The notes under the pieces were generated by a model. It was not told the DNA's origin and did not search any database. It worked only from the letters and a program-made list of their open reading frames with translations. A program made the translations under genes and the position numbers. Below, in pieces: positions 7,598 to 15,437 of a stretch of DNA of 64,000 bases; position 1 is the first letter of the stretch, and each line of letters begins with the position of its first letter. This DNA is from Deltaproteobacteria bacterium (lineage in GTDB: Bacteria > Desulfobacterota > Desulfobacteria > Desulfobacterales > GCA-2748835), in the NCBI GenBank assembly GCA_002748835.1, contig PDTL01000026.1:14330-78329 (forward strand). The letters are read 5' to 3'.

Positions 7598-8962
7598 GTG
7601 GACCTGTTTTCCTATGCGGAGCATGACACGGATCCTAGGCGTTCGCCGCTGGCAGACCGCCTGCGTCCCGAGTCCCTTGCGGATTACGAGGGCCAGGACA
7701 CTGCCGTGGGGGATGGCTCCCTGATCCGGAATGCGATTGAGGCGGATCATCCGTTTTCCATGATCCTCTGGGGGCCGCCGGGGTGCGGGAAAACCACCCT
7801 GGCCAAGATCATGGCAAAAGAGACCGCCTCGCATTTTGTAGAAATATCTGCGGTCTTATCCGGGGTCGGGGATATCCGGAATGTGATTGATGCCGCCCGC
7901 AAGCAGCGCCGGCTGCATCAGAGGCAAACCCTTTTGTTTGTCGATGAAATTCACCGGTTCAACAAGGCCCAGCAGGACGCGTTTCTGCACCATGTGGAGA
8001 GCGGGCTGATCACGCTCATCGGTGCTACCACGGAGAATCCCTCCTTTGAAGTCATTCCAGCCCTCTTATCCCGGTGCCGCGTCATTCAGCTGGTGGCGCC
8101 GGACGCAGCCGCCATGAACCGGATTCTGGACAGAGCGCTCGCCGATGAGCACAAGGGGCTGGGGGCACTCCGGCTGTCTGTTTCAACTGAGGCCCGGATG
8201 CATCTGATCCATCAGGCGGACGGGGATGTGCGCATGCTGCTCAACAACCTCGAGGCAGCCGCGTTCATGGCACTGAAAAAACGGCCGCCTGGTGCGGATG
8301 GAGCGCGGGAGATCGCCCTTGATCTGGTCGAACAGACGCTTCAGAAAAAAGCACTGCATTACGACAAAAGCGGTGAAGAACACTATAATCTGATTTCCGC
8401 GTTTCACAAAAGCCTGCGCGGCAGTGATCCGGACGGTGCCCTCTACTGGATGGAGCGGATGCTTGCCGGCGGTGAAGACCCGCTTTACATTGCCCGCCGC
8501 ATGGTGCGGTTCGCATCCGAAGATGTGGGCAATGCCGATCCGCACGCCCTGACCATGGCCCTGAATGCCGTGGAAGCGTTTCGTCTCCTTGGCCATCCAG
8601 AGGGTGAACTGGCCCTTTCTCAGGCCGTCGTCTATCTGGCCACCGCGCCCAAGAGCAATGCCGTGTATGCGGCCACTCAATCGGTACGGCAGTTTGTTGC
8701 ATCCACAGGCTACCTGCCAGTCCCCCTGCATATCCGGAACGCGCCCACGGGCCTGATGCAGGACATGGGATACGGCGAGGGGTACCGGTATGCCCATGAT
8801 TATGAAGGCGGGTACGCGCCCCAGGATTATCTGCCTGACGGTCATGAAACAAAACGGTTTTATTTTCCGGTGGACCGGGGCTACGAGCAGGCCATTGGCA
8901 GGCGGCTCAGCCAGTGGCTGGAATGTCGCAGGCGGTCAAGAAAAGCGGCAGGGCGGTCGTGA
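7598..8962 (+). CDS. rarA: Replication-associated recombination protein RarA/MgsA
   Basis: [48 protein letters not shown]. Confidence 0.95.
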
Positions 8963-8973
8963 CCCGTAAACAG
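8934..8973 (+). repeat. 40-bp direct repeat copy 1 (spans rarA stop codon)
   Basis: GGTCAAGAAAAGCGGCAGGGCGGTCGTGACCCGTAAACAG. Confidence 0.9.
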
Positions 8974-9177
8974 CAGGCAGATGCGCGTCATGACATCAGT
9001 CAGGAGCGGCTGATGCGGGTTTAGGGATTTCTGTGCCGGCACGGGTGGGCCTGCGCCTTGAGATGGCAGGCGAAGGCAGGCGTCAGGGACGTGCCGATGC
9101 CAGTCGGGATATGATTGCCGACTGCCGGGGGAATGCTGCCGGTATCATGATCCGAGTCTTTTGCGGATTGAAGTGAA

Positions 9178-9207
9178 TTGACAACCCAGCCCAAGGGGGC
9201 TATTGAT
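9178..9207 (+). promoter_or_regulatory. Putative sigma70-type promoter of LRR cassette 1 (repeated at 10283 and 11409)
   Basis: TTGACA, 17-nt spacer containing an AGCCC/GGGCT inverted repeat, then an AT-rich imperfect -10. Confidence 0.45.
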
Positions 9208-9299
9208 AAATATATATCGTTAAAAGAACTTTCTGGGGAGCATAACGCTGACAGACATACGCTCCCCTTTTTCTGGTAACGCTTCTTATGGAGGCTGAT

Positions 9300-9962
9300 A
9301 TGTTTCGCTTAAATGTTTGTGATTGGTATGGTGTTGACTGTAACAGCGACAGAACTGCTGTTACACGTCTTGACCTTAATCATAACAGCCTCACAGGTCC
9401 AATTCCTGAGTCTATTGGAAAATTAAAAAATCTAGGATATCTTAACCTTGAGAGTAACAGCCTCACAGGTCCAATCCCTGAGTCTATTGGAAACTTAACA
9501 AACCTAAGCGGTCTTGACCTTGAGAGTAACGGCCTCACAGGTCCAATCCCTGAGTCTATTGGAAACTTAACAGGTCTAATAGGCCTTTACCTTTTGAATA
9601 ACAGCCTCACAGGTCCAATTCCTGAGTCGATTGGAAAATTAACAAACCTAATATATCTTCACCTTGACAGTAACAGCCTCACAGGTCCAATTCCTAATTC
9701 TATTGGGAATTTAACAAAATTAAGAATATTCGATCTTGATTCGAACAACCTATCAGGAGTCATTCCCACCACCATCACATCGTTGACCTATTTATTAAGT
9801 GGAGAATTACGTCTATATGAGAATTGCAATTTAACTACCCCGAATCAAAACGTGATAGACTTTATAGACAGTAAAAGCGACGGCGGTTATCAGAAAATTC
9901 TAGACACAAATGGACATTGCGGCGTCACCCTCAGTCCTATCTATCATTTGTTACTCAATTAA
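9300..9962 (+). CDS. LRR protein cassette 1 (24-aa plant-type LRRs); signal peptide and most of N-cap deleted in frame
   Basis: LxxLxLxxNSLTGPIPESIGNLTN repeats; GGAGG RBS before ATG 9300; C-terminal LSPIYHLLLN. Confidence 0.85.
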   Translation: MFRLNVCDWYGVDCNSDRTAVTRLDLNHNSLTGPIPESIGKLKNLGYLNLESNSLTGPIPESIGNLTNLSGLDLESNGLTGPIPESIGNLTGLIGLYLLNNSLTGPIPESIGKLTNLIYLHLDSNSLTGPIPNSIGNLTKLRIFDLDSNNLSGVIPTTITSLTYLLSGELRLYENCNLTTPNQNVIDFIDSKSDGGYQKILDTNGHCGVTLSPIYHLLLN

Positions 9963-9976
9963 AATATGGGAAGAAA

Positions 9977-10006
9977 AAAGCCGGCAGACACGCGTCTCCC
10001 GGCTTT
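9977..10006 (+). terminator. Hairpin terminator after LRR cassette (also at 11241-11270 and 12350-12379)
   Basis: AAAGCCGG-C-AGAC-loop-GTCT-C-CCGGCTTT. Confidence 0.7.
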
Positions 10007-10016
10007 CAGCATTAGG

Positions 10017-10056
10017 GGTCAAGAAAAGGGGCAGGGCGGTCGTGACCCGTAAACAG
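10017..10056 (+). repeat. 40-bp direct repeat copy 2
   Basis: 1 mismatch to copy 1. Confidence 0.9.
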
Positions 10057-10404
10057 CAGGCAGATGCGCGTCATGGCATCACTCAGGAGCGGCTGATGCG
10101 GGTTCAGGGATTTCTGTGCCGGCACCCGCTCACCGATGGAGATCCGCTGAATGGACGGGTGACGGAACGGGTGGGCCTGCGCCTTGAGATGGCAGGCGAA
10201 GGCAGGCGTCAGGGACGTGCCGATGCCTGCCGGGGGAATGCTGCCGGTATCATGATCCGAGTCCTTTGCGGATTGAAATGAATTGACAACCCAGCCCAAG
10301 GGGGCTATTTATAACTGAATATCGTTAAAAGAACTTTCTGGGGAGCATAACGCTGACAGACATACGCTCCCCTTTTTCTGGTAACGCTTCTTATGGAGGC
10401 TGAT

Positions 10405-11145
10405 ATGTTTCGCTTAACGGCACTTGTCGATCTCTACAATGCGACCCATGGTGTTCAGTGGGAGAGTCAAGACAATTGGAAAGTGCCAGGCACGCATGTT
10501 TGTGATTGGTATGGTGTTACCTGTAACAGCGACAGCACTGCTGTTATAGCCCTGGAGCTTCCTGAAAACAATCTCACAGGTGACATGCCTGAGTCTATTG
10601 GAAACTTAACAAATCTAACAGGTCTTGACCTTCAAGATAACAGCCTCACAGGTCCAATTCCTGAGTCTATTGGAAACTTAACAAATCTAACAGAGCTTTC
10701 CCTTTGGATTAACAGCCTCACAGGCCCAATTCCTGAGTCTATTGGAGACTTAACAAATCTAACATCTCTTGACCTTGGCTGGAACAGCCTTACAGGTCCA
10801 ATTCCTGAGTCTGTTGGAAAATTAACAAATCTAACATATCTTTACCTTGATAGGAACAGCCTCACAGGTCCAATTCCTGAGCCTATTGGGAATTTAACAA
10901 AATTAGATGGACTCTATCTTGATTCGAACAACCTATCAGGAGTCATTCCCACCACCATCACATCGTTGACCTATTTAGTAAGTGGAGAATTAACTCTATA
11001 TGAGAATTGTAATTTAACTGCCCCGAATCAAAACGTGATAGACTTTATAAACAGTAAAGGCAACGGCGGTTATCAGAAAATTCTAGACACAAATGGACAT
11101 TGCGGCGTCACCCTCAGTCCTATCTATCATTTGTTACTCAATTAA
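10405..11145 (+). CDS. LRR protein cassette 2; N-cap intact, signal-peptide core deleted in frame
   Basis: ALVDLY..T.G..W....NW......CDWYGV.C cap (LRRNT_2-like), six LRRs, same C-terminal tail. Confidence 0.85.
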   Translation: MFRLTALVDLYNATHGVQWESQDNWKVPGTHVCDWYGVTCNSDSTAVIALELPENNLTGDMPESIGNLTNLTGLDLQDNSLTGPIPESIGNLTNLTELSLWINSLTGPIPESIGDLTNLTSLDLGWNSLTGPIPESVGKLTNLTYLYLDRNSLTGPIPEPIGNLTKLDGLYLDSNNLSGVIPTTITSLTYLVSGELTLYENCNLTAPNQNVIDFINSKGNGGYQKILDTNGHCGVTLSPIYHLLLN

Positions 11146-11287
11146 CATGGCGACGCAGTGATCGCTTCGATTGTTGAGTCTCGTGTGCGGATTTCAACCG
11201 CATCGCATGAATGATTCCAGTTTGCGCGTATGGGAAGAAAAAAGCCGGCAGACAAGCGTCTCCCGGCTTTCAGCATTTAGAGATAAG

Positions 11288-11331
11288 GGAGATAAGGGGA
11301 CAGTCAAATGGAGATAAGGGGACAGTCAAAT
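11288..11331 (+). repeat. 22-bp tandem repeat x2 (GGAGATAAGGGGACAGTCAAAT)
   Basis: Two perfect adjacent copies plus a partial copy upstream. Confidence 0.85.
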
Positions 11332-11548
11332 AATACATTATTTCTTGTTGAAAATCGTGAACCTTTGATTTCCAAATGTGGCTACCCTGGCACACAAACA
11401 CAAATGAATTGACAACCCAGCCCAATGGGGCTATTTATAAATGCATATAAATGCATATAAATGTATATCGTTAAAAGGACTTTCTGGGGAGCATAACGCT
11501 GACAGACCTATGATCCCTTTTTCTGGTAACGCTTTCATGGAGGCTGAT

Positions 11549-12254
11549 ATGTTTCGCTTGACTGTGTTGGTTTCAGGTTTACTGTTTGCATTGTGTGGTA
11601 ATGCGTTTGGCGATTTAGCGACTGACAGAGCGGCGCTTGTCGATCTCTACGATGCGACCCATGGTGATCAGTGATCTCACAAGCTCAATTCCTAATTCTA
11701 TTGGAAACTTAACAAATCTAACAATTCTTTTTCTTTACTATAATAACCTCACAGGTCCAATCCCTGAGTCTATTGGAGATTTAACAAATCTAACAGATCT
11801 TAGGCTTTACGGTAACAGCCTCACAGGACCAATTCCTGAGTCTATTGGAAACTTAACAAATCTAACCGATCTTTTCCTTTGGAAAAACAGCCTCACAGGT
11901 CCAATCCCTGCGTCTATTGGAAACTTAACAAATCTAAAATGGCTTTGGCTTAATCGTAACAGCCTCACAGGACCAATTCCTGAGTCTATTGGGAATTTAA
12001 CAAAATTAAAAAGCTTCCATCTTTATACGAACAGCCTATCAGGCGTCATTCCCACCACCATCACAGCGTTGACCGATTTAAATAGTGGAAGCTTAGGTCT
12101 ATATGAGAATTGCAATTTAACTACCTCGAATCAAAGCGCGATAGCCTTTATCAATAGTAAAGCCACCGGCGGTTATCAAAAAATTCTAGACACAAATGGA
12201 CATTGCGTCGTCACCGTCACCCTCAGTCCTATTTATCATTTGTTACTCAATTAA
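11549..12254 (+). pseudogene. LRR protein cassette 3; signal peptide intact, frameshifting deletion in the N-cap
   Basis: MFRLTVLVSGLLFALCGNAFG-DLATDRAALVDLY... stops at 11674; LRRs continue in another frame; ~110 nt missing relative to cassette 2. Confidence 0.85.
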
Positions 12255-12389
12255 AAGGACGACGCAGTGATCGCTTTGATTGTTGATTTTCGTGTGCGGA
12301 TTTCAACCGCATCTCATGAATGATTCCAGTTTGCGCGTATGGAAAGCAAAAAGCCGGCAGACAAGCGTCTCCCGGCTTTCAGCATTAGG

Positions 12390-12429
12390 GGTCAAGAAAA
12401 GCGTCAGGGCGGTCGTGAACCGGAAACAG
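12390..12429 (+). repeat. 40-bp direct repeat copy 3 (right boundary of island)
   Basis: 3 mismatches to copy 1. Confidence 0.85.
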
Positions 12430-12455
12430 GGGCCGTCATCTATCACCGGTCAGCG

Positions 12456-15377
12456 TCAATGAGACAGATTACGGCTGACCACTTTTTTGAATTCTTCCCC
12501 GGAATAGACCGTTTTGGCCCCAGACGATGATGCGGGGCAGGCCTCTGACTGGGAAGCAATGAGCGGTCTGAATCCTGTTGAAAACACAATCCCGGAACGG
12601 GATGCGTTCAGGGGGATGGAAATGGGCTGGTCATAGAGCAGGTAGGCCCCGAACGCTTCTCCCGCATCACCAATGTACCCGTCATTATCCAGGTCACTCC
12701 CTGCGTAAATCCGGTAGAGCCCGCCTGTCAGCCCGGTGAAATTGAAGGTGTAGGCACCGTCTTCGGGCGCCTGGTTCTGCTGGGAGACAACCGCATTGGT
12801 TTCATCATCCACAAGTAGAATATAGTGATAGGAAGCATTGGAAGCCTTGCTGGCCCTGAAATACTGCAGGGCCACCGGGATCGTCATCGTTTCAGCAGAA
12901 CTGGTGATCCGGATACTTGTGGAATGCGCGCCTTCGGAGAGACCGCTCCGGTCTGCGATGACCGTATAAACCCCAAGCCCGGTATCTGGATCCGTTGCAT
13001 TGGATGTCACCTGGAGCCAGGAGTCCTGTGGGGAAACGCTGGAGATGCTTAAGGGCGAAGCACCTGCATTGGCAAGGGTCAGAAACAGGCGGTCTTCCGT
13101 GAGGCCGAAATTGAGGGACGATGGCGACACGCTGAGCCGGGCCGGTGTTTCAAGATCACCGGTGCCTCGGAGCACCATGAGGGTTTCCGCTGCCCGTTTG
13201 CCGTTGATCAGGCCATAGCCGAACAGGGCATCTTTTCCCGGTTCTCCGATATCTTCCGTGAGCCGGCCGTCTTGCAGGAGCTCATCTGCGAGCGCCGGTG
13301 TCAGATTAGGATACCCCGCTTTCATCAGGGCGAAAAAACCTGTGACATGCGGGGCTGCCATGGAGGTGCCCTGCTCAAAGGTGTAGACATGCTGGATAGA
13401 CCCGGTGCTGTCGTCCCCGGCGGTGCTGAGGATTCCGTCTCCATATCCGTCACCGTTCACATCTGTGGCGGTCACTCCTCCGGGAGCGGCCACATCTATC
13501 CAGGATCCGTAATTGGAGTAAAAGGCAGATGCTTTCTGCAGGGTAACGGCAGATACGGCGGTCACGCCTGGATAGGCAGCTGGATATGCCTGGATCCGTG
13601 TGGCTTCGTTTCCGGCAGCGGCCACCACATGGATACCAAGGCTTCGGATCTGCTCGTAAAGGGCGGCTTCGGACTCCGTATAGCCGGCGCCACCCAGGCT
13701 CATATTGATGATATCCGCAGGCGGATCCAGGATCCGTCCGGAGTCATTGGAGAGTCCCGCCGCATAACGGACCGCCTGAATGATGTCATAGGTATATCCT
13801 CCCTCTTTTCCGAGTACCCGCAGGGGGATGAGGGTGGCTGACGGTGCCACGCCGGCAATGCCGGTGCTGTTTCCCGTCACACCAGCAATGGTGCCGGCCA
13901 CATGGGTGCCGTGAAAGCTGCTATTCCCGTTGATGCTCTGGTCTCCGGGGTCTGACGGGTCCGCATCTATGCCATCGCCGTCAAGGGCGTTTTCCGGATC
14001 GCTGATGAAATCATATCCTGCCGTCAGCTGTCCGGCAAGGTCCGGGTGGTCGGTCAGCACGCCGGTATCAATGACCGCGCACCGGACACCAGACCCGTCC
14101 GTGAGTGACCAGAGCGAGGAGAGCTGGATCATGTCATAGTGCCACTGGTAGGTGTAGAGCGGATCATCCGGAGCCACTGCACAGGGTTTGCGGATGAAGT
14201 TGGGGCTTGCATAGCGGACACGGGGAGAGTTGTTGAGTGATTTTACGGCGTACAGGAGCGAGAGCTTGCGTGCCTGAAGCGGCGCCAGCGCGCATGGAAA
14301 CGCGGTGATCAGGTCCGTGTTTTCAGTGTCTGACAGGTATGCCCGGGCGGTTTGCCTTTGTTTAGCGCCATCCGTACGGTACAGAAGGGTCGGGCACCCA
14401 GGCGTGGATGCGCCTTTCAGCTGCCACCCGGTCGGAATCGCGGTGAAGGTACTGGCGGTTGCCGCATCGGTTTCGGCCTGGCTGCTTTCATCGGTATATT
14501 CGGTAATGATGGTATCTGGATCAAAGGCGGTGTTGAGGGTAGGTCCTGTTTTTTTAGCAAGGCCGGCATCCCCGATAAACCGGCTGATGATGAGGTTGTA
14601 GGCAGATGCACCGCTGTACGGATGTACGGCAATGTAAAAGGTGCCGGCTGCCGGTGCATCCAGAACTTCAGCATCGGTTTCTCCGACCGCGCCATCGACC
14701 AGGTTTTCGTCCGCATCGAAAATAAACAGGTCCAGATCCGCATGAGGATCGGCTATGATTAGCTGGATCACTTCATCGCCAGTAAAGTCCACGGCAAAGA
14801 AATCAAAGATATCTCCGGACAGAAACGAGCTCCCCTGGGACCCGTTGAGCGGCTGATTGACATACCCGCCCAGCACCACCGGACAGCTGATCGTCTGGGC
14901 GTTACGAATTGTATTGTTGGTCGTGTCGGCCACATTGGGATCATTGACATCGGCGTCCGTGAGTGTGGCACCGGGTATCTGTACAGTGCCGCTCAGGGAG
15001 AGGTCTCTGGCCGGGGGCGTCACCTGAATGGACAGGGTCGCGGTGCCTGAGGATCCTGCTGCATCCGTGATCGTGAGCGTTGCATCGTAGGTACCGGACT
15101 GGGTGTAAATATGACCGGTTGAGACGTCTACGGCAGAGGTGCCGTCTCCGAAATTCCATGCGTAGGAGAACGGTTCACGCCATCCGGTCTCTTGCGCGTC
15201 GGTTGCGTCAAAGGTAACAGACAGCGGTGCGGCACCGGACGCCGGAGAAGCCGTAAACCGGATGGCAGAAGGGGGAGGGCCGTCGTTATCAGAAGCATCA
15301 CTTCCACCGCCGCCACCGCAGCTGATGCAGAAGAGAAGCAGGACAAGGACGAAACAACAGGAAATGGCATGCCGCAT
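12456..15377 (-). CDS. Lipoprotein S8 (subtilisin-like) serine peptidase with PKD domain
   Basis: Lipobox-like LFCISC-GGGGG, PKD (WNFGDG..H.Y...G.Y), triad motifs VIDTG / HGTHVAG / GTSMAAPHV; AGGAGG before ATG 15377. Confidence 0.92.
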   Translation of the reverse strand: MRHAISCCFVLVLLLFCISCGGGGGSDASDNDGPPPSAIRFTASPASGAAPLSVTFDATDAQETGWREPFSYAWNFGDGTSAVDVSTGHIYTQSGTYDATLTITDAAGSSGTATLSIQVTPPARDLSLSGTVQIPGATLTDADVNDPNVADTTNNTIRNAQTISCPVVLGGYVNQPLNGSQGSSFLSGDIFDFFAVDFTGDEVIQLIIADPHADLDLFIFDADENLVDGAVGETDAEVLDAPAAGTFYIAVHPYSGASAYNLIISRFIGDAGLAKKTGPTLNTAFDPDTIITEYTDESSQAETDAATASTFTAIPTGWQLKGASTPGCPTLLYRTDGAKQRQTARAYLSDTENTDLITAFPCALAPLQARKLSLLYAVKSLNNSPRVRYASPNFIRKPCAVAPDDPLYTYQWHYDMIQLSSLWSLTDGSGVRCAVIDTGVLTDHPDLAGQLTAGYDFISDPENALDGDGIDADPSDPGDQSINGNSSFHGTHVAGTIAGVTGNSTGIAGVAPSATLIPLRVLGKEGGYTYDIIQAVRYAAGLSNDSGRILDPPADIINMSLGGAGYTESEAALYEQIRSLGIHVVAAAGNEATRIQAYPAAYPGVTAVSAVTLQKASAFYSNYGSWIDVAAPGGVTATDVNGDGYGDGILSTAGDDSTGSIQHVYTFEQGTSMAAPHVTGFFALMKAGYPNLTPALADELLQDGRLTEDIGEPGKDALFGYGLINGKRAAETLMVLRGTGDLETPARLSVSPSSLNFGLTEDRLFLTLANAGASPLSISSVSPQDSWLQVTSNATDPDTGLGVYTVIADRSGLSEGAHSTSIRITSSAETMTIPVALQYFRASKASNASYHYILLVDDETNAVVSQQNQAPEDGAYTFNFTGLTGGLYRIYAGSDLDNDGYIGDAGEAFGAYLLYDQPISIPLNASRSGIVFSTGFRPLIASQSEACPASSSGAKTVYSGEEFKKVVSRNLSH

Positions 15378-15437
15378 GGTGCCTCCTTGTTGAAAAGTGG
15401 TTTTTTTAACAATAAATACAATGCTCAAGGAACTGTG

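Follow-up and report, generated by a model that had tools for sequence, protein, structure and literature searches.

Diversity-generating retroelements (DGRs) and the pilE/pilS genes of Neisseria are bacterial systems in which templated copies serve to diversify a ligand-binding face or a surface protein. DGRs require a reverse transcriptase and a template repeat, while pilS cassettes are silent and lack promoters. The repeats of TAL effectors are near-identical in DNA and recombine. These Xanthomonas proteins have been described as bacterial repeat proteins whose repeats, otherwise near-identical, vary at a small number of specificity positions (PMC3394250).

High-internal-conservation (HIC) repeats are reported from fungal NLRs, namely the Podospora HNWD genes het-d, het-e and het-r, and from bacterial NLR-like proteins. 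In the accounts cited here, their DNA is near-identical apart from a few hypervariable codons on the binding surface, and identity between paralogues is as high as within a gene, which is explained by concerted evolution via repeat exchange together with diversifying selection (PMC4986451, PMC12222747, PMC13449251, bioRxiv 10.1101/2020.01.06.895854). A repeat identity threshold of 85% has been used as the criterion for HIC repeats (PMC4986451).

The variable lymphocyte receptor (VLR) of lampreys is described as a single germline gene that is incomplete and contains a non-coding intervening sequence; hundreds of partial cassettes, in one orientation or the other, flank it. Assembly is somatic, and AID/APOBEC-like deaminases have been implicated in the process (PMC3308329, PMC5889659).

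Organization of the array

The array considered here belongs to a Deltaproteobacteria bacterium (Desulfobacterales; GCA-2748835; assembly GCA_002748835.1). The window, the whole stretch of DNA analysed, comprises 64,000 nt of contig PDTL01000026.1 (14,330-78,329, forward strand). The genome is a draft of 38 contigs, 85% complete, and all genome-wide searches carry this scope. As originally predicted, three paralogous LRR units stand in tandem at window positions 8934-12429, each made up of a leader followed by a gene that encodes a small LRR protein of plant type. The array lies at the 3′ end of rarA, with 44-nt direct repeats on both sides.

7598..8962, + strand: rarA-like AAA ATPase gene (open reading frame); its final 29 nt are the beginning of the first 44-nt boundary repeat A
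8934..8977, + strand: boundary direct repeat A, copy 1, left array edge (blastn, 44 nt, 97.7% identity with copy 2)
8978..9175, + strand: GC-rich segment B, copy 1 (43-nt gap and 21-nt insertion relative to copy 2 in the alignment)
9980..10003, + strand: conserved GC hairpin at the 3′ end of unit 1 (read from the sequence, conserved in the alignment)
10017..10060, + strand: boundary direct repeat A, copy 2 (alignment, blastn)
10061..10280, + strand: GC-rich segment B, copy 2 (A and B jointly 10016-10280, GC 0.63)
11244-11267 and 12353-12376, + strand: counterparts of the GC hairpin in the other units, conserved with it
11262..11415, + strand: upstream segment of unit 3, in place of B, with a perfect 22-nt tandem duplication at 11288-11331
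12389..12429, + strand: boundary direct repeat A′, copy 3, right array edge (90% over 41 nt), immediately before the stop of the convergent S8 protease gene
12456..15428, - strand: neighbouring subtilase (Peptidase_S8 and PKD), of native GC and outside the array

Copies 1 and 2 of A and B together differ at 6 of 221 aligned positions, and segment B has no match in Pfam, Rfam or the relatives. The upstream segment of unit 3 also contains pieces of a small dispersed intergenic element. The hairpin of unit 1 was not scored as a terminator (its T-run is short).

The LRR genes have a GC3 of 0.35-0.37, against 0.62 for the genome, and the array is compositionally foreign. This composition, the scarcity of CTG among their Leu codons and the rarity of the C-cap domain (both given below) suggest a horizontal origin.

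Framework and variable codons

Each copy contains five full plant-type LRRs of 24 residues (72 nt), and the 15 repeats were aligned.

9396..9755, + strand: five 72-nt LRR units of copy 1 (repeat alignment)
10579..10938, + strand: five 72-nt LRR units of copy 2 (repeat alignment)
11682..12041, + strand: five 72-nt LRR units of copy 3 (repeat alignment)

The LRR count, predicted to be the same throughout, is equal for these full repeats; an additional LRR0, proximal to the N-cap, is present in copies 1 and 2 and missing from copy 3. Repeat 5 is a distinct type common to all three copies.

Framework codons hardly vary, even at third positions: CCT at position 4, TTA at position 10 and CTT at position 18 are found in 15/15 repeats, ACA at position 11 and AAC at position 21 in 14/15. 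The original prediction of near-invariance at silent sites is thereby borne out, although the framework as a whole is ~91% identical rather than invariant. Codon bias does not account for this identity, since four different codons serve the five Leu positions, with one codon fixed at each, and CTG, the preferred Leu codon of the genome, makes up 0.9% of Leu codons in the LRR genes versus 49.5% genome-wide.

The x positions of LxxLxLxxN (14, 15, 17, 19 and 20) carry 7, 7, 8, 8 and 10 different residues, and no other position more than three; by chance, five positions named a priori would rank highest among the 24 with a probability of 1/42504. The six x combinations listed in the prediction all occur, and the x residues are rich in D, Y, S, T, G and W (D12, Y10, S9, T8, G7 and W5 of 75). 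Among solved structures, FLS2 gives the best match (4mn8_A; E 6e-145 in 8 stretches, query residues 28-194 to chain residues 27-193). To judge from the LRR motif and this alignment, the variable positions would be the solvent-exposed β-strand positions of the concave face, in agreement with the binding face proposed originally.

Over the 66 pairs formed by repeats 1-4, framework pS (0.125; pN 0.074) is far below the x-position pN of 0.593, a silent-site comparison that had been proposed with the prediction. A comparison of copy 1 with copy 2 gives differences at 39 of 75 nt in x codons and at 55 of 933 in all other aligned positions (odds ratio 17, p 5e-24).

Divergence confined to five codons per repeat is also what targeted hypermutation, by a DGR or another codon-directed mutator, might produce, and apparent synonymous divergence is higher in x codons (pS 0.34-0.44) than in the framework (0.10-0.135). 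This excess, however, would be expected from convergent residues at saturation. Leu codons 16 and 18, which lie between x codons, read CTT throughout repeats 1-4 (12/12 for each), and such invariance at fourfold sites amid saturated codons argues against regional hypermutation. Variation in the x codons affects all three positions, and NNT, AGG and TGG codons occur, types that adenine-only mutagenesis of one template codon, the rule in DGRs, would not yield. Neither a reverse transcriptase (PF00078) nor a template copy of the repeat elsewhere was found in the 85%-complete genome. Targeted hypermutation is therefore highly improbable; the codon-precise pattern fits selection on residues in young repeats, and not regional hypermutation or neutral conversion.

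Repeat frameworks have an identity of 0.912 within genes (18 pairs), 0.912 between genes at the same repeat index (12 pairs) and 0.913 at different indices (36 pairs), the outcome to be expected if identical frameworks are homogenised or shuffled. The 7.9-9.6% by which frameworks of different copies diverge does not follow the divergence of the flanks, and repeat kinship crosses indices, as in the trio c1r1/c1r4/c2r4 (copy and repeat numbers) and the pair c2r2/c3r3, which has 1/57 framework differences. The x patches cannot be told apart from draws made by shuffling columns (minimum distance 4/15, P 0.6), and therefore provide no direct footprint of patch exchange.

Gene copies and their lesions

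The leaders and reading frames of the three units are as follows.

9176..9299, + strand: leader of unit 1, with a TTGACA box, a hairpin with U-run, and GGAGG 5 nt upstream of ATG; 96.8% identity to the unit 2 leader
9300..9962, + strand: LRR gene copy 1; additional in-frame ATG at 9288
10281..10404, + strand: leader of unit 2 (alignment)
10405..11145, + strand: LRR gene copy 2, 246 aa from MFRL (P0001); additional in-frame ATG at 10393
11407..11548, + strand: leader of unit 3, carrying a tandem insert (10 nt x3.3, 11436-11468) and a hairpin with a mutated 3′ arm
11549..11674, + strand: 5′ fragment of copy 3, signal peptide and start of LRRNT; its stop arises from a 110-nt deletion
11675..12254, + strand: body of copy 3 in a different frame, five LRRs and C-cap, separated from its start codon

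Leader (90-97% conserved), Shine-Dalgarno sequence and ATG are present in 3/3 copies; thus none is a silent cassette, unlike those of pilS. The intact protein would comprise a signal peptide, an LRRNT cap, LRR0, five 24-residue LRRs, a Cys-capped C-terminal domain and a conserved hydrophobic tail. The copy 2 product has LRRNT (Pfam LRRNT_2, 21.5 bits versus a cut-off of 20.7), LRR0, five LRRs and the Cys C-cap, and is missing the 69-nt signal-peptide segment. A 78-nt in-frame deletion relative to copy 2 leaves copy 1 without signal peptide and first half of LRRNT, and the 110-nt deletion shifts the frame of copy 3. The N-terminal deletions thus differ in all three copies (69, 78 and 110 nt). 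Eight of 11 homologues (set A1) have a hydrophobic N-terminus, as judged by eye; copies 1 and 2 have none there. Over 163 non-x codons omega is 0.74-0.81, no different from 1. The dN/dS estimates are Nei-Gojobori counts on saturated codons, and the sample of 15 repeats is small. All three copies probably are disabled in this genome, and the array appears inactive and decaying. With two copies lacking a signal peptide, one frameshifted and near-neutral non-x codons, the proposed repertoire of surface receptors or adhesins is doubtful.

Alternatively, copies 1 and 2 could be functional intracellular LRR proteins, or be exported otherwise, their x faces having diverged by selection after duplication in this genome. 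Their reading frames are intact, leaders and start codons are conserved, and the 69-nt and 78-nt deletions are in frame; upstream DNA, leader and C-terminal domain differ by 2.7-3.9%, and x codons by 52%. However, omega between the two is 0.81 at non-x codons, 7/8 C-terminal differences are non-synonymous, copy 1 is without half of its cap, and most homologues keep the hydrophobic N-terminus. Cys pairs in caps are typical of extracytoplasmic LRR domains and count against an intracellular one. Continued function of these copies is accordingly unlikely.

The shared loss of the signal peptide in copies 1 and 2 also bears on any account based on selection. If they arose by a duplication as recent as their flanks suggest and were by then non-secreted, selection for binding cannot explain the 52% x divergence, which counts against the HIC-type explanation preferred below; later homogenisation of the flanks or imported LRR blocks would be needed.

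Instead, a short-read metagenome assembler might have collapsed the alleles of different strains, or a larger number of copies, so that the array, its repeat order or its N-terminal deletions would be chimeric. The assembly is in draft form, and short-read assemblies of highly conserved repeats are noted as possibly wrong (PMC12222747). Against this, to judge by eye, each 72-nt unit has a unique 21-nt patch and identical framework runs reach at most ~51 nt, so that typical large k-mers and reads would span the repeats. The three deletion junctions, likewise read by eye, share no long identical words between copies at which assembly paths could jump. An artefact is improbable, and it would leave the central contrast intact, since the 15 distinct x patches must be in the reads in any order.

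Relatives, further copies and machinery

The genes appear to encode a small LRR protein of plant type, normally secreted and belonging to a rare subfamily. The subfamily's C-cap domain was found in 0/400 further genomes of the phylum, and 27 of 1.84 billion library representatives have it, the window's own protein counted. The contrast between x positions and framework is seen in the family as well. In 15 related loci, x-position residue identity is 0.05-0.37 versus 0.45-0.76 in the framework, and same-residue codon identity is 0.31-0.61 versus 0.82-0.83 in this array. Where repeat pairs of relatives reach a framework identity of 0.85 or more, their x identity is 0.51-0.67, and in P0140, a subfamily member, the repeats are near-identical, x positions included.

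The original prediction had named a lack of further copies as evidence against itself; none of the LRR gene or its cassettes was found elsewhere in the 85%-complete genome, giving a total of three. There is no APOBEC_N match to indicate an APOBEC-like deaminase, and neither a serine nor a tyrosine recombinase on the contig. The targeted, VLR-like system proposed originally is not supported by three copies in the 85%-complete genome, in the form of complete units without such machinery; the equal framework identity is in line with the suggested shuffling of repeats.

A working recombinational repertoire of pilE/pilS or VLR type could nevertheless be imagined, in which 51-nt frameworks guide exchange of 21-nt patches among copies or kin DNA, and the 5′ end of copy 3 is completed from the bodies of copies 1 and 2, such that only recombinants are secreted. 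The lesions are complementary, copy 3 having the signal peptide and copy 2 the LRRNT segment that copy 3 lost; conserved leaders and start signals, framework equidistance, kinship across indices, and an x divergence of copies 1 and 2 far above that of their flanks also fit. But any two different lesions would be complementary by chance, no x patches are shared or related beyond chance, and non-x codons show an omega of ~0.8. Upstream of the deletion, homology between copies 3 and 2 extends over 41 nt with 3 mismatches, the longest identical runs being ~15 nt (read by eye), which is short for RecA-type exchange. The few copies, the lack of a recombinase on the contig and the rarity of the C-cap domain, which gives no sign of a conserved system, likewise make such a repertoire an improbable one.

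Comparison with described systems and best explanation

The array shares with the VLR an LRR scaffold, LRRNT and LRRCT caps and variable concave-face residues, and copying might in principle be directed by short stretches of homology from one LRR unit to another. It differs in having three complete transcription units in one orientation and no further cassettes. Ectodomains of plant LRR RLKs and RLPs (FLS2, GSO1, MIK2, HAESA) have the same 24-residue plant-specific consensus and LRRNT_2-type cap with CxWxGVxC. However, the array proteins are ~250 residues with 6-7 LRRs, lack an island domain, TM helix and kinase, end in another type of C-terminal cap that bears a conserved hydrophobic C-terminal motif, and come from a bacterial host. 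TAL effectors show no sequence relation; theirs are helical, DNA-reading repeats of 33-35 residues with two variable residues rather than five, and they use type III secretion.

Like HIC repeats, the array combines near-identical DNA, few hypervariable codons, and equal identity within genes and between paralogues. Its fold, in contrast, is LRR and not WD40, ANK or TPR, there is no NOD/ATPase domain, and the proteins are small, of secreted type and apparently disabled. Whole-repeat residue identity is 0.72 (repeats 1-4) or 0.68 (all 15), below the 85% criterion. Repeat-number polymorphism is typical of HIC repeats, and the three copies show none. Both the five repeats in every copy and the 0.72 identity count against an HIC reading.

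By analogy, the array nonetheless resembles the HIC regime, and TALE repeats. The best explanation, with a probability of roughly 60%, is an HIC-type history in a horizontally acquired array. Its 72-nt units would be young or continually homogenised, by unequal crossing-over or gene conversion between them, and diversifying selection on ligand-contact residues would have saturated the concave-face codons. The x diversity would mostly predate the lesions, given the signal-peptide loss, the frameshift and the near-neutral non-x codons, and may have arisen in a low-GC donor lineage. The process would have acted on an evolutionary time scale, and not as programmed somatic assembly or templated hypermutation; the array, presumably acquired horizontally, is now probably decaying in this genome.

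Variation within the LRR repeats

Three tandem LRR genes (copies 1, 2 and 3, belonging to units 1-3) lie at 8934-12429, between rarA and the gene for an S8 subtilase, exactly where the original prediction had placed them. Each copy contains five full 24-residue repeats, followed by a Cys-containing C-terminal domain. LRRs of the plant-specific (PS) class follow the 24-residue consensus LxxLxLxxNxL(T/S)GxIPxxLGxLxxL, and 15 of the 15 repeats fit this pattern; Pfam LRR_1, LRR_8 and LRR_14 pass their cut-offs in each copy. The LxxLxLxxNxL core of LRRs is stated in PMC5976695 and PMC2946307.

The five x positions of LxxLxLxxN fall at repeat positions 14, 15, 17, 19 and 20, and the rest of the 72-nt repeat is termed here the framework. 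Across the 15 repeats, the x positions carry 7-10 residues each, against three at most at any other position; positions 5, 9 and 12 count as semi-variable. The claim that hypervariable x positions are set in near-invariant framework DNA is borne out, as framework codons are nearly fixed in the 15 repeats, silent sites included. Repeat 5 is a distinct type, orthologous between copies.

Silent (pS) and replacement (pN) differences in 66 pairs of repeats 1-4
Framework: pS 0.125, pN 0.074
x codons: pS 0.379, pN 0.593

The per-codon comparison goes the way the original prediction expected, with a pN of 0.59 at x codons against a framework pS of 0.125; after Jukes-Cantor correction, the x replacement rate in repeats 1-4 is roughly 8-9 times the framework silent rate. 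Whole repeats have a residue identity of 0.72 (repeats 1-4, 66 pairs) or 0.68 (all 15, 105 pairs) and a nucleotide identity of 0.815 or 0.775, respectively; that of the framework alone is 0.91.

Codon bias is excluded as the source of framework codon identity, since four different codons are in use at the five Leu positions, each fixed by position, and CTG, the preferred Leu codon of the genome, is avoided (0.9% in the LRR genes versus 49.5% in the genome). The Leu codons 16 and 18, which lie between x codons, are CTT in 12/12 of repeats 1-4. So codon-precise a pattern is beyond the reach of regional hypermutation and of neutral gene conversion, but it can arise where residues are under selection in repeats that are young or homogenised. 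Judging from the LRR motif and an alignment with the plant receptor kinase FLS2, the x positions would lie on the concave face. With 15 repeats and 75 variable residues (D, Y, S, T, G and W being frequent), the array offers a compact natural example of a putative binding face varied on a constant scaffold.

History of the repeats and copies

Among repeats 1-4, frameworks have an identity of 0.912 whether compared inside one gene or at matching indices of two genes, and of 0.913 at non-matching indices of two genes, so that neither gene nor index leaves a signal in the repeats. In this small sample, such equality points to concerted evolution within and between paralogues, although a star-like burst of duplication may also have given rise to it. 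Homogenisation would predict that framework similarity is uncoupled from the age of the copies.

Differences between copy 1 and copy 2
Upstream DNA (repeat A and segment B): 6/221 nt
Leader: 4/124 nt
C-terminal domain: 8/207 nt
Framework of repeats 1-4: 18/228 nt
x codons: 39/75 nt

The x codons stand apart from everything else in this comparison (odds ratio 17, p 5e-24). In comparisons with copy 3 the flanks are 2-3 times more diverged, yet framework divergence is still 8.8-9.6%; framework similarity is therefore uncoupled from copy age. The x patches differ among themselves as much as column-shuffled patches do, framework and x distances in repeats 1-4 have a correlation of 0.15, and a four-gamete test returned three gametes, with only two informative framework sites. 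Copies 1 and 2 differ at 21/25 x residues (our own count) despite near-identical flanks and a shared loss of the signal peptide. Either the flanks and the lesion were homogenised after the LRR blocks had diverged, or LRR blocks were swapped with unseen donors.

For a family comparison, 52 related loci were screened for frames in which four or more repeats match the motif. Only the 15 that passed were kept, and four of these (L013, L015, L030 and L031) are near-identical and so not independent. Residue identity at x positions is low in all 15 (0.05-0.37). Codon identity at positions with the same residue is 0.31-0.61 in these loci, compared with 0.82-0.83 in the window. Four loci studied in more detail contain repeat pairs with a framework identity of at least 0.85 (13/91, 31/561, 8/276 and 1/21 pairs), and in these x identity is 0.51-0.67. 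In P0140, a metagenomic protein of 220 aa belonging to the same subfamily, the LRRs are near-identical, x positions included, which shows that its repeats were amplified recently while the binding face did not diversify. Fast x evolution is thus a trait of the whole family, in which repeat amplification recurs, with the window as the extreme case seen.

Tests of programmed diversification

In diversity-generating retroelements (DGRs), variation is confined to template adenines. A DGR target is rejected here: the genome, 85% complete, has no match to the reverse transcriptase profile PF00078, no copy of the repeat lies outside the array to act as template, and variation is not confined to adenines. 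Each of the three codon positions varies in the x codons, which as a set cannot be derived from one adenine-bearing template codon, and adenine-rich framework codons are invariant.

The original prediction had proposed a diversification system resembling that of the lamprey variable lymphocyte receptors (VLRs). The VLR expression gene is described as incomplete, with a non-coding intervening sequence that is replaced during assembly (PMC3308329). Here, copies 1 and 2 are continuous ORFs, and copy 3 is broken by a 110-nt deletion, with no intervening sequence. The large bank of promoter-less partial LRR cassettes that flanks a VLR gene is likewise absent, every unit having its own leader, Shine-Dalgarno sequence and ATG. 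An AID/APOBEC-like deaminase, searched for with the APOBEC_N profile (PF08210) alone, gave no match in the genome. The further copies or expression locus that had been anticipated elsewhere did not appear, as all tblastn and blastn matches in the 85% complete genome fell inside the array. With the incomplete gene, cassette bank and deaminase all lacking, the VLR-like interpretation is not supported.

No serine recombinase was found in the genome, and its four tyrosine recombinase matches are all on contigs other than that of the window. The locus has no close relatives among 17 loci on genome contigs and 25 on metagenome contigs, the best being 48% identical. If LRR blocks were exchanged with unseen donors, an active recombinational repertoire would retain a small probability. 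In a working bacterial system of cassette-based receptor diversification, the identical 51-nt frameworks would guide swaps of 21-nt specificity patches among the three copies and with DNA of kin, and a join between the copy 3 5' end, which bears the signal peptide, and the body of copy 1 or copy 2 would switch on a secreted LRR binder with a new specificity, the draft representing an 'off' configuration; we consider this improbable.

Organisation and probable decay of the locus

The window is a segment of bacterial chromosome, from contig C27 of a 2.43-Mb draft (38 contigs, 85% complete). Upstream of the array are housekeeping genes (ribosomal protein S1, a histidine kinase, an NtrC-type regulator, Der and RarA); downstream are the convergent subtilase, TANGO2, an AI-2E transporter, GyrA and GpsA.

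Features of the array and its flank
8934-8977, 10017-10060, 12389-12429: 44-nt direct repeats A, which bracket and subdivide the array
8978-9175, 10061-10280: GC-rich segment B, duplicated with units 1 and 2
9176-9299, 10281-10404, 11407-11548: unit leaders, kept in every unit
9918-9959, 11101-11142, 12210-12251: hydrophobic C-terminal tail, consensus roughly SPIYYLLLN
12456-15428, minus strand: S8 subtilase of 990 residues with a PKD domain, secreted-type with a lipoprotein-like N-terminus

The subtilase gene follows the array directly; its GC is native, and nothing evident links it to the LRR genes. Units 1 and 2 open with repeat A, followed by segment B, whereas the upstream segment of unit 3 is unlike theirs. 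Common to all three are a leader (about 124 nt, with 90-97% identity), the LRR gene and a conserved GC hairpin, with GGAGG 5 nt ahead of the ATG (MFRL...), and a third copy of repeat A closes the array. The first copy overlaps the final 29 nt of rarA. These repeats resemble an att-type duplication at a gene 3' end or the scar of unequal crossing-over; no integrase lies nearby. Repeat A and segment B together (10016-10280) have a GC of 0.63 and, when read in frame with a minus-strand ORF of 95 aa, a GC3 of 0.72. Segment B matched nothing in Pfam, on either strand, or in Rfam, and found just one match, 25 nt long, in 40 relatives; it may be a remnant of a native gene.

In each leader, a GC hairpin (7-bp stem, 19-nt loop) and then a U-run lie immediately 5' of the Shine-Dalgarno sequence; in unit 3 the 3' arm of the hairpin is mutated. 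The arrangement looks attenuator-like, with a fold z-score of -1.4 that is not significant. No Rfam family matched 8700-12700 at E <= 1, and a promoter/terminator scan returned no plus-strand sigma-70 site above thresholds and three promoter-like sites, where shuffles led one to expect 6.9. Upstream of unit 3, the DNA at 11262-11415 holds a perfect 22-nt tandem duplication, the core of which recurs on other contigs at C36:5411-5434, C17:18454-18474 and C17:47291-47310, all intergenic and the first two placed after short tandem repeats. A separate 51-nt stretch there is 94% identical to C34:122372-122422. Together these pieces look like a small dispersed element.

Copy 3 alone retains a putative signal peptide and the start of the LRRNT, in a fragment at 11549-11674, after which its deletion shifts the frame. 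Copy 2 has lost the 69-nt signal-peptide segment, and copy 1 a further 78 nt; a hydrophobic N-terminus is seen by eye in 8 of 11 homologues in A1, an alignment of the C-cap subfamily. At 163 non-x codons, omega is 0.74-0.81, indistinguishable from 1. The LRR genes have a GC of 0.38-0.42 and a GC3 of 0.35-0.37, while the GC3 of the genome is 0.62; the x codons, at 0.41, are thus compositionally nearer to the foreign genes than to the host. These features suggest that a small islet was acquired horizontally and underwent duplication here. From the lesions, omega, composition and the 44-nt repeats at the rarA 3' end, we infer that the array is now decaying, and the locus is probably inactive.

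The LRR proteins and their family

Among solved structures, the closest are the ectodomains of plant receptor kinases, headed by FLS2 (4mn8). Copy 2 has a plant-type N-cap, with a CxWxGVxC motif and a match to LRRNT_2 (PF08263) at 21.5 bits (cut-off 20.7), which aligns with the FLS2 N-cap residue for residue. In copy 1 the Cys motif alone is retained, with no Pfam match, and in copy 3 the cap is deleted.

The C-terminal domain follows the pattern LYxNCxL...FI..K...GYQxILxTNGxC, then a short hydrophobic motif at the extreme C-terminus. Out of 1.84 billion representatives, a search with the 68-residue C-terminus recovered 27 at E <= 1e-3, one of them the protein of the window itself, and a sample of 400 further genomes of this phylum did not yield the domain. 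It defines a rare, patchily distributed subfamily, the members of which are mostly of 200-360 residues and end in the conserved motif; domain and tail align in 13/13 rows of A1. Ten members that were looked up are all cluster singletons, the sole organism label being a Pseudomonadota MAG (P0018). The tail sits directly after the last Cys, also in the homologues P0018, P0121, P0122, P0127, P0139 and others. At this length it could not form a membrane helix, and a basic tail is lacking; a cap strand and a sorting signal are candidate roles.

More broadly, the LRR domain is very common (3423 proteins at E <= 1e-3 among 8000 candidates), and 10 of 40 same-order relatives match it, some within giant ORFs. 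Two of the same-order genomes, G009 and G032, which are large (about 7-8 Mb) and fragmented, have 24 and 22 matches; some of these (loci L005 and L003) are in ORFs of up to 2700 residues with repeated LRRNT-LRR-cap modules.

Relation to repeats of high internal conservation

Repeats of high internal conservation (HIC) are described as near-identical, with few hypervariable, positively selected binding-site codons, and as kept so by repeat exchange within and between paralogues; they are known from the WD40, ANK and TPR domains of fungal NLRs and have been noted in bacterial NLRs (PMC4986451, PMC12222747, bioRxiv 10.1101/2020.01.06.895854, PMC13449251). The survey in PMC13449251 also took in LRR proteins, and puts HIC at 5.59% of those repeat proteins that lack an ATPase domain. 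LRR repeats are not displayed by prokaryotic NLRs, according to bioRxiv 10.1101/2020.01.06.895854.

The evolutionary regime of the window genes appears to match that of HIC repeats, with which they share a few hypervariable codons per repeat (the five x codons) and the concerted evolution indicated by framework identities of 0.912/0.912/0.913. However, as 5/24 residues per repeat vary, their whole-repeat residue identity of 0.72 is under the HIC threshold sensu Dyrka et al. 2014, given in PMC4986451 as an identity between repeats of 85% or more, over a length of 100 residues or more. Nor do they display repeat-number polymorphism, each of the three copies in this one genome having five full repeats, and they are not NLRs. 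No published account was found of the C-cap subfamily, or of HIC-type LRR repeats in small bacterial proteins, although the supplements of PMC13449251 may list such proteins.

The observation is real and striking, and represents a known evolutionary regime in a probably inactive locus. As found, the locus is of comparative rather than mechanistic value and opens no long-standing question. If the reading favoured here is true, the HIC regime would operate also in small, secreted-type bacterial LRR proteins. The finding draws attention, too, to a rare subfamily with a conserved C-terminal motif.
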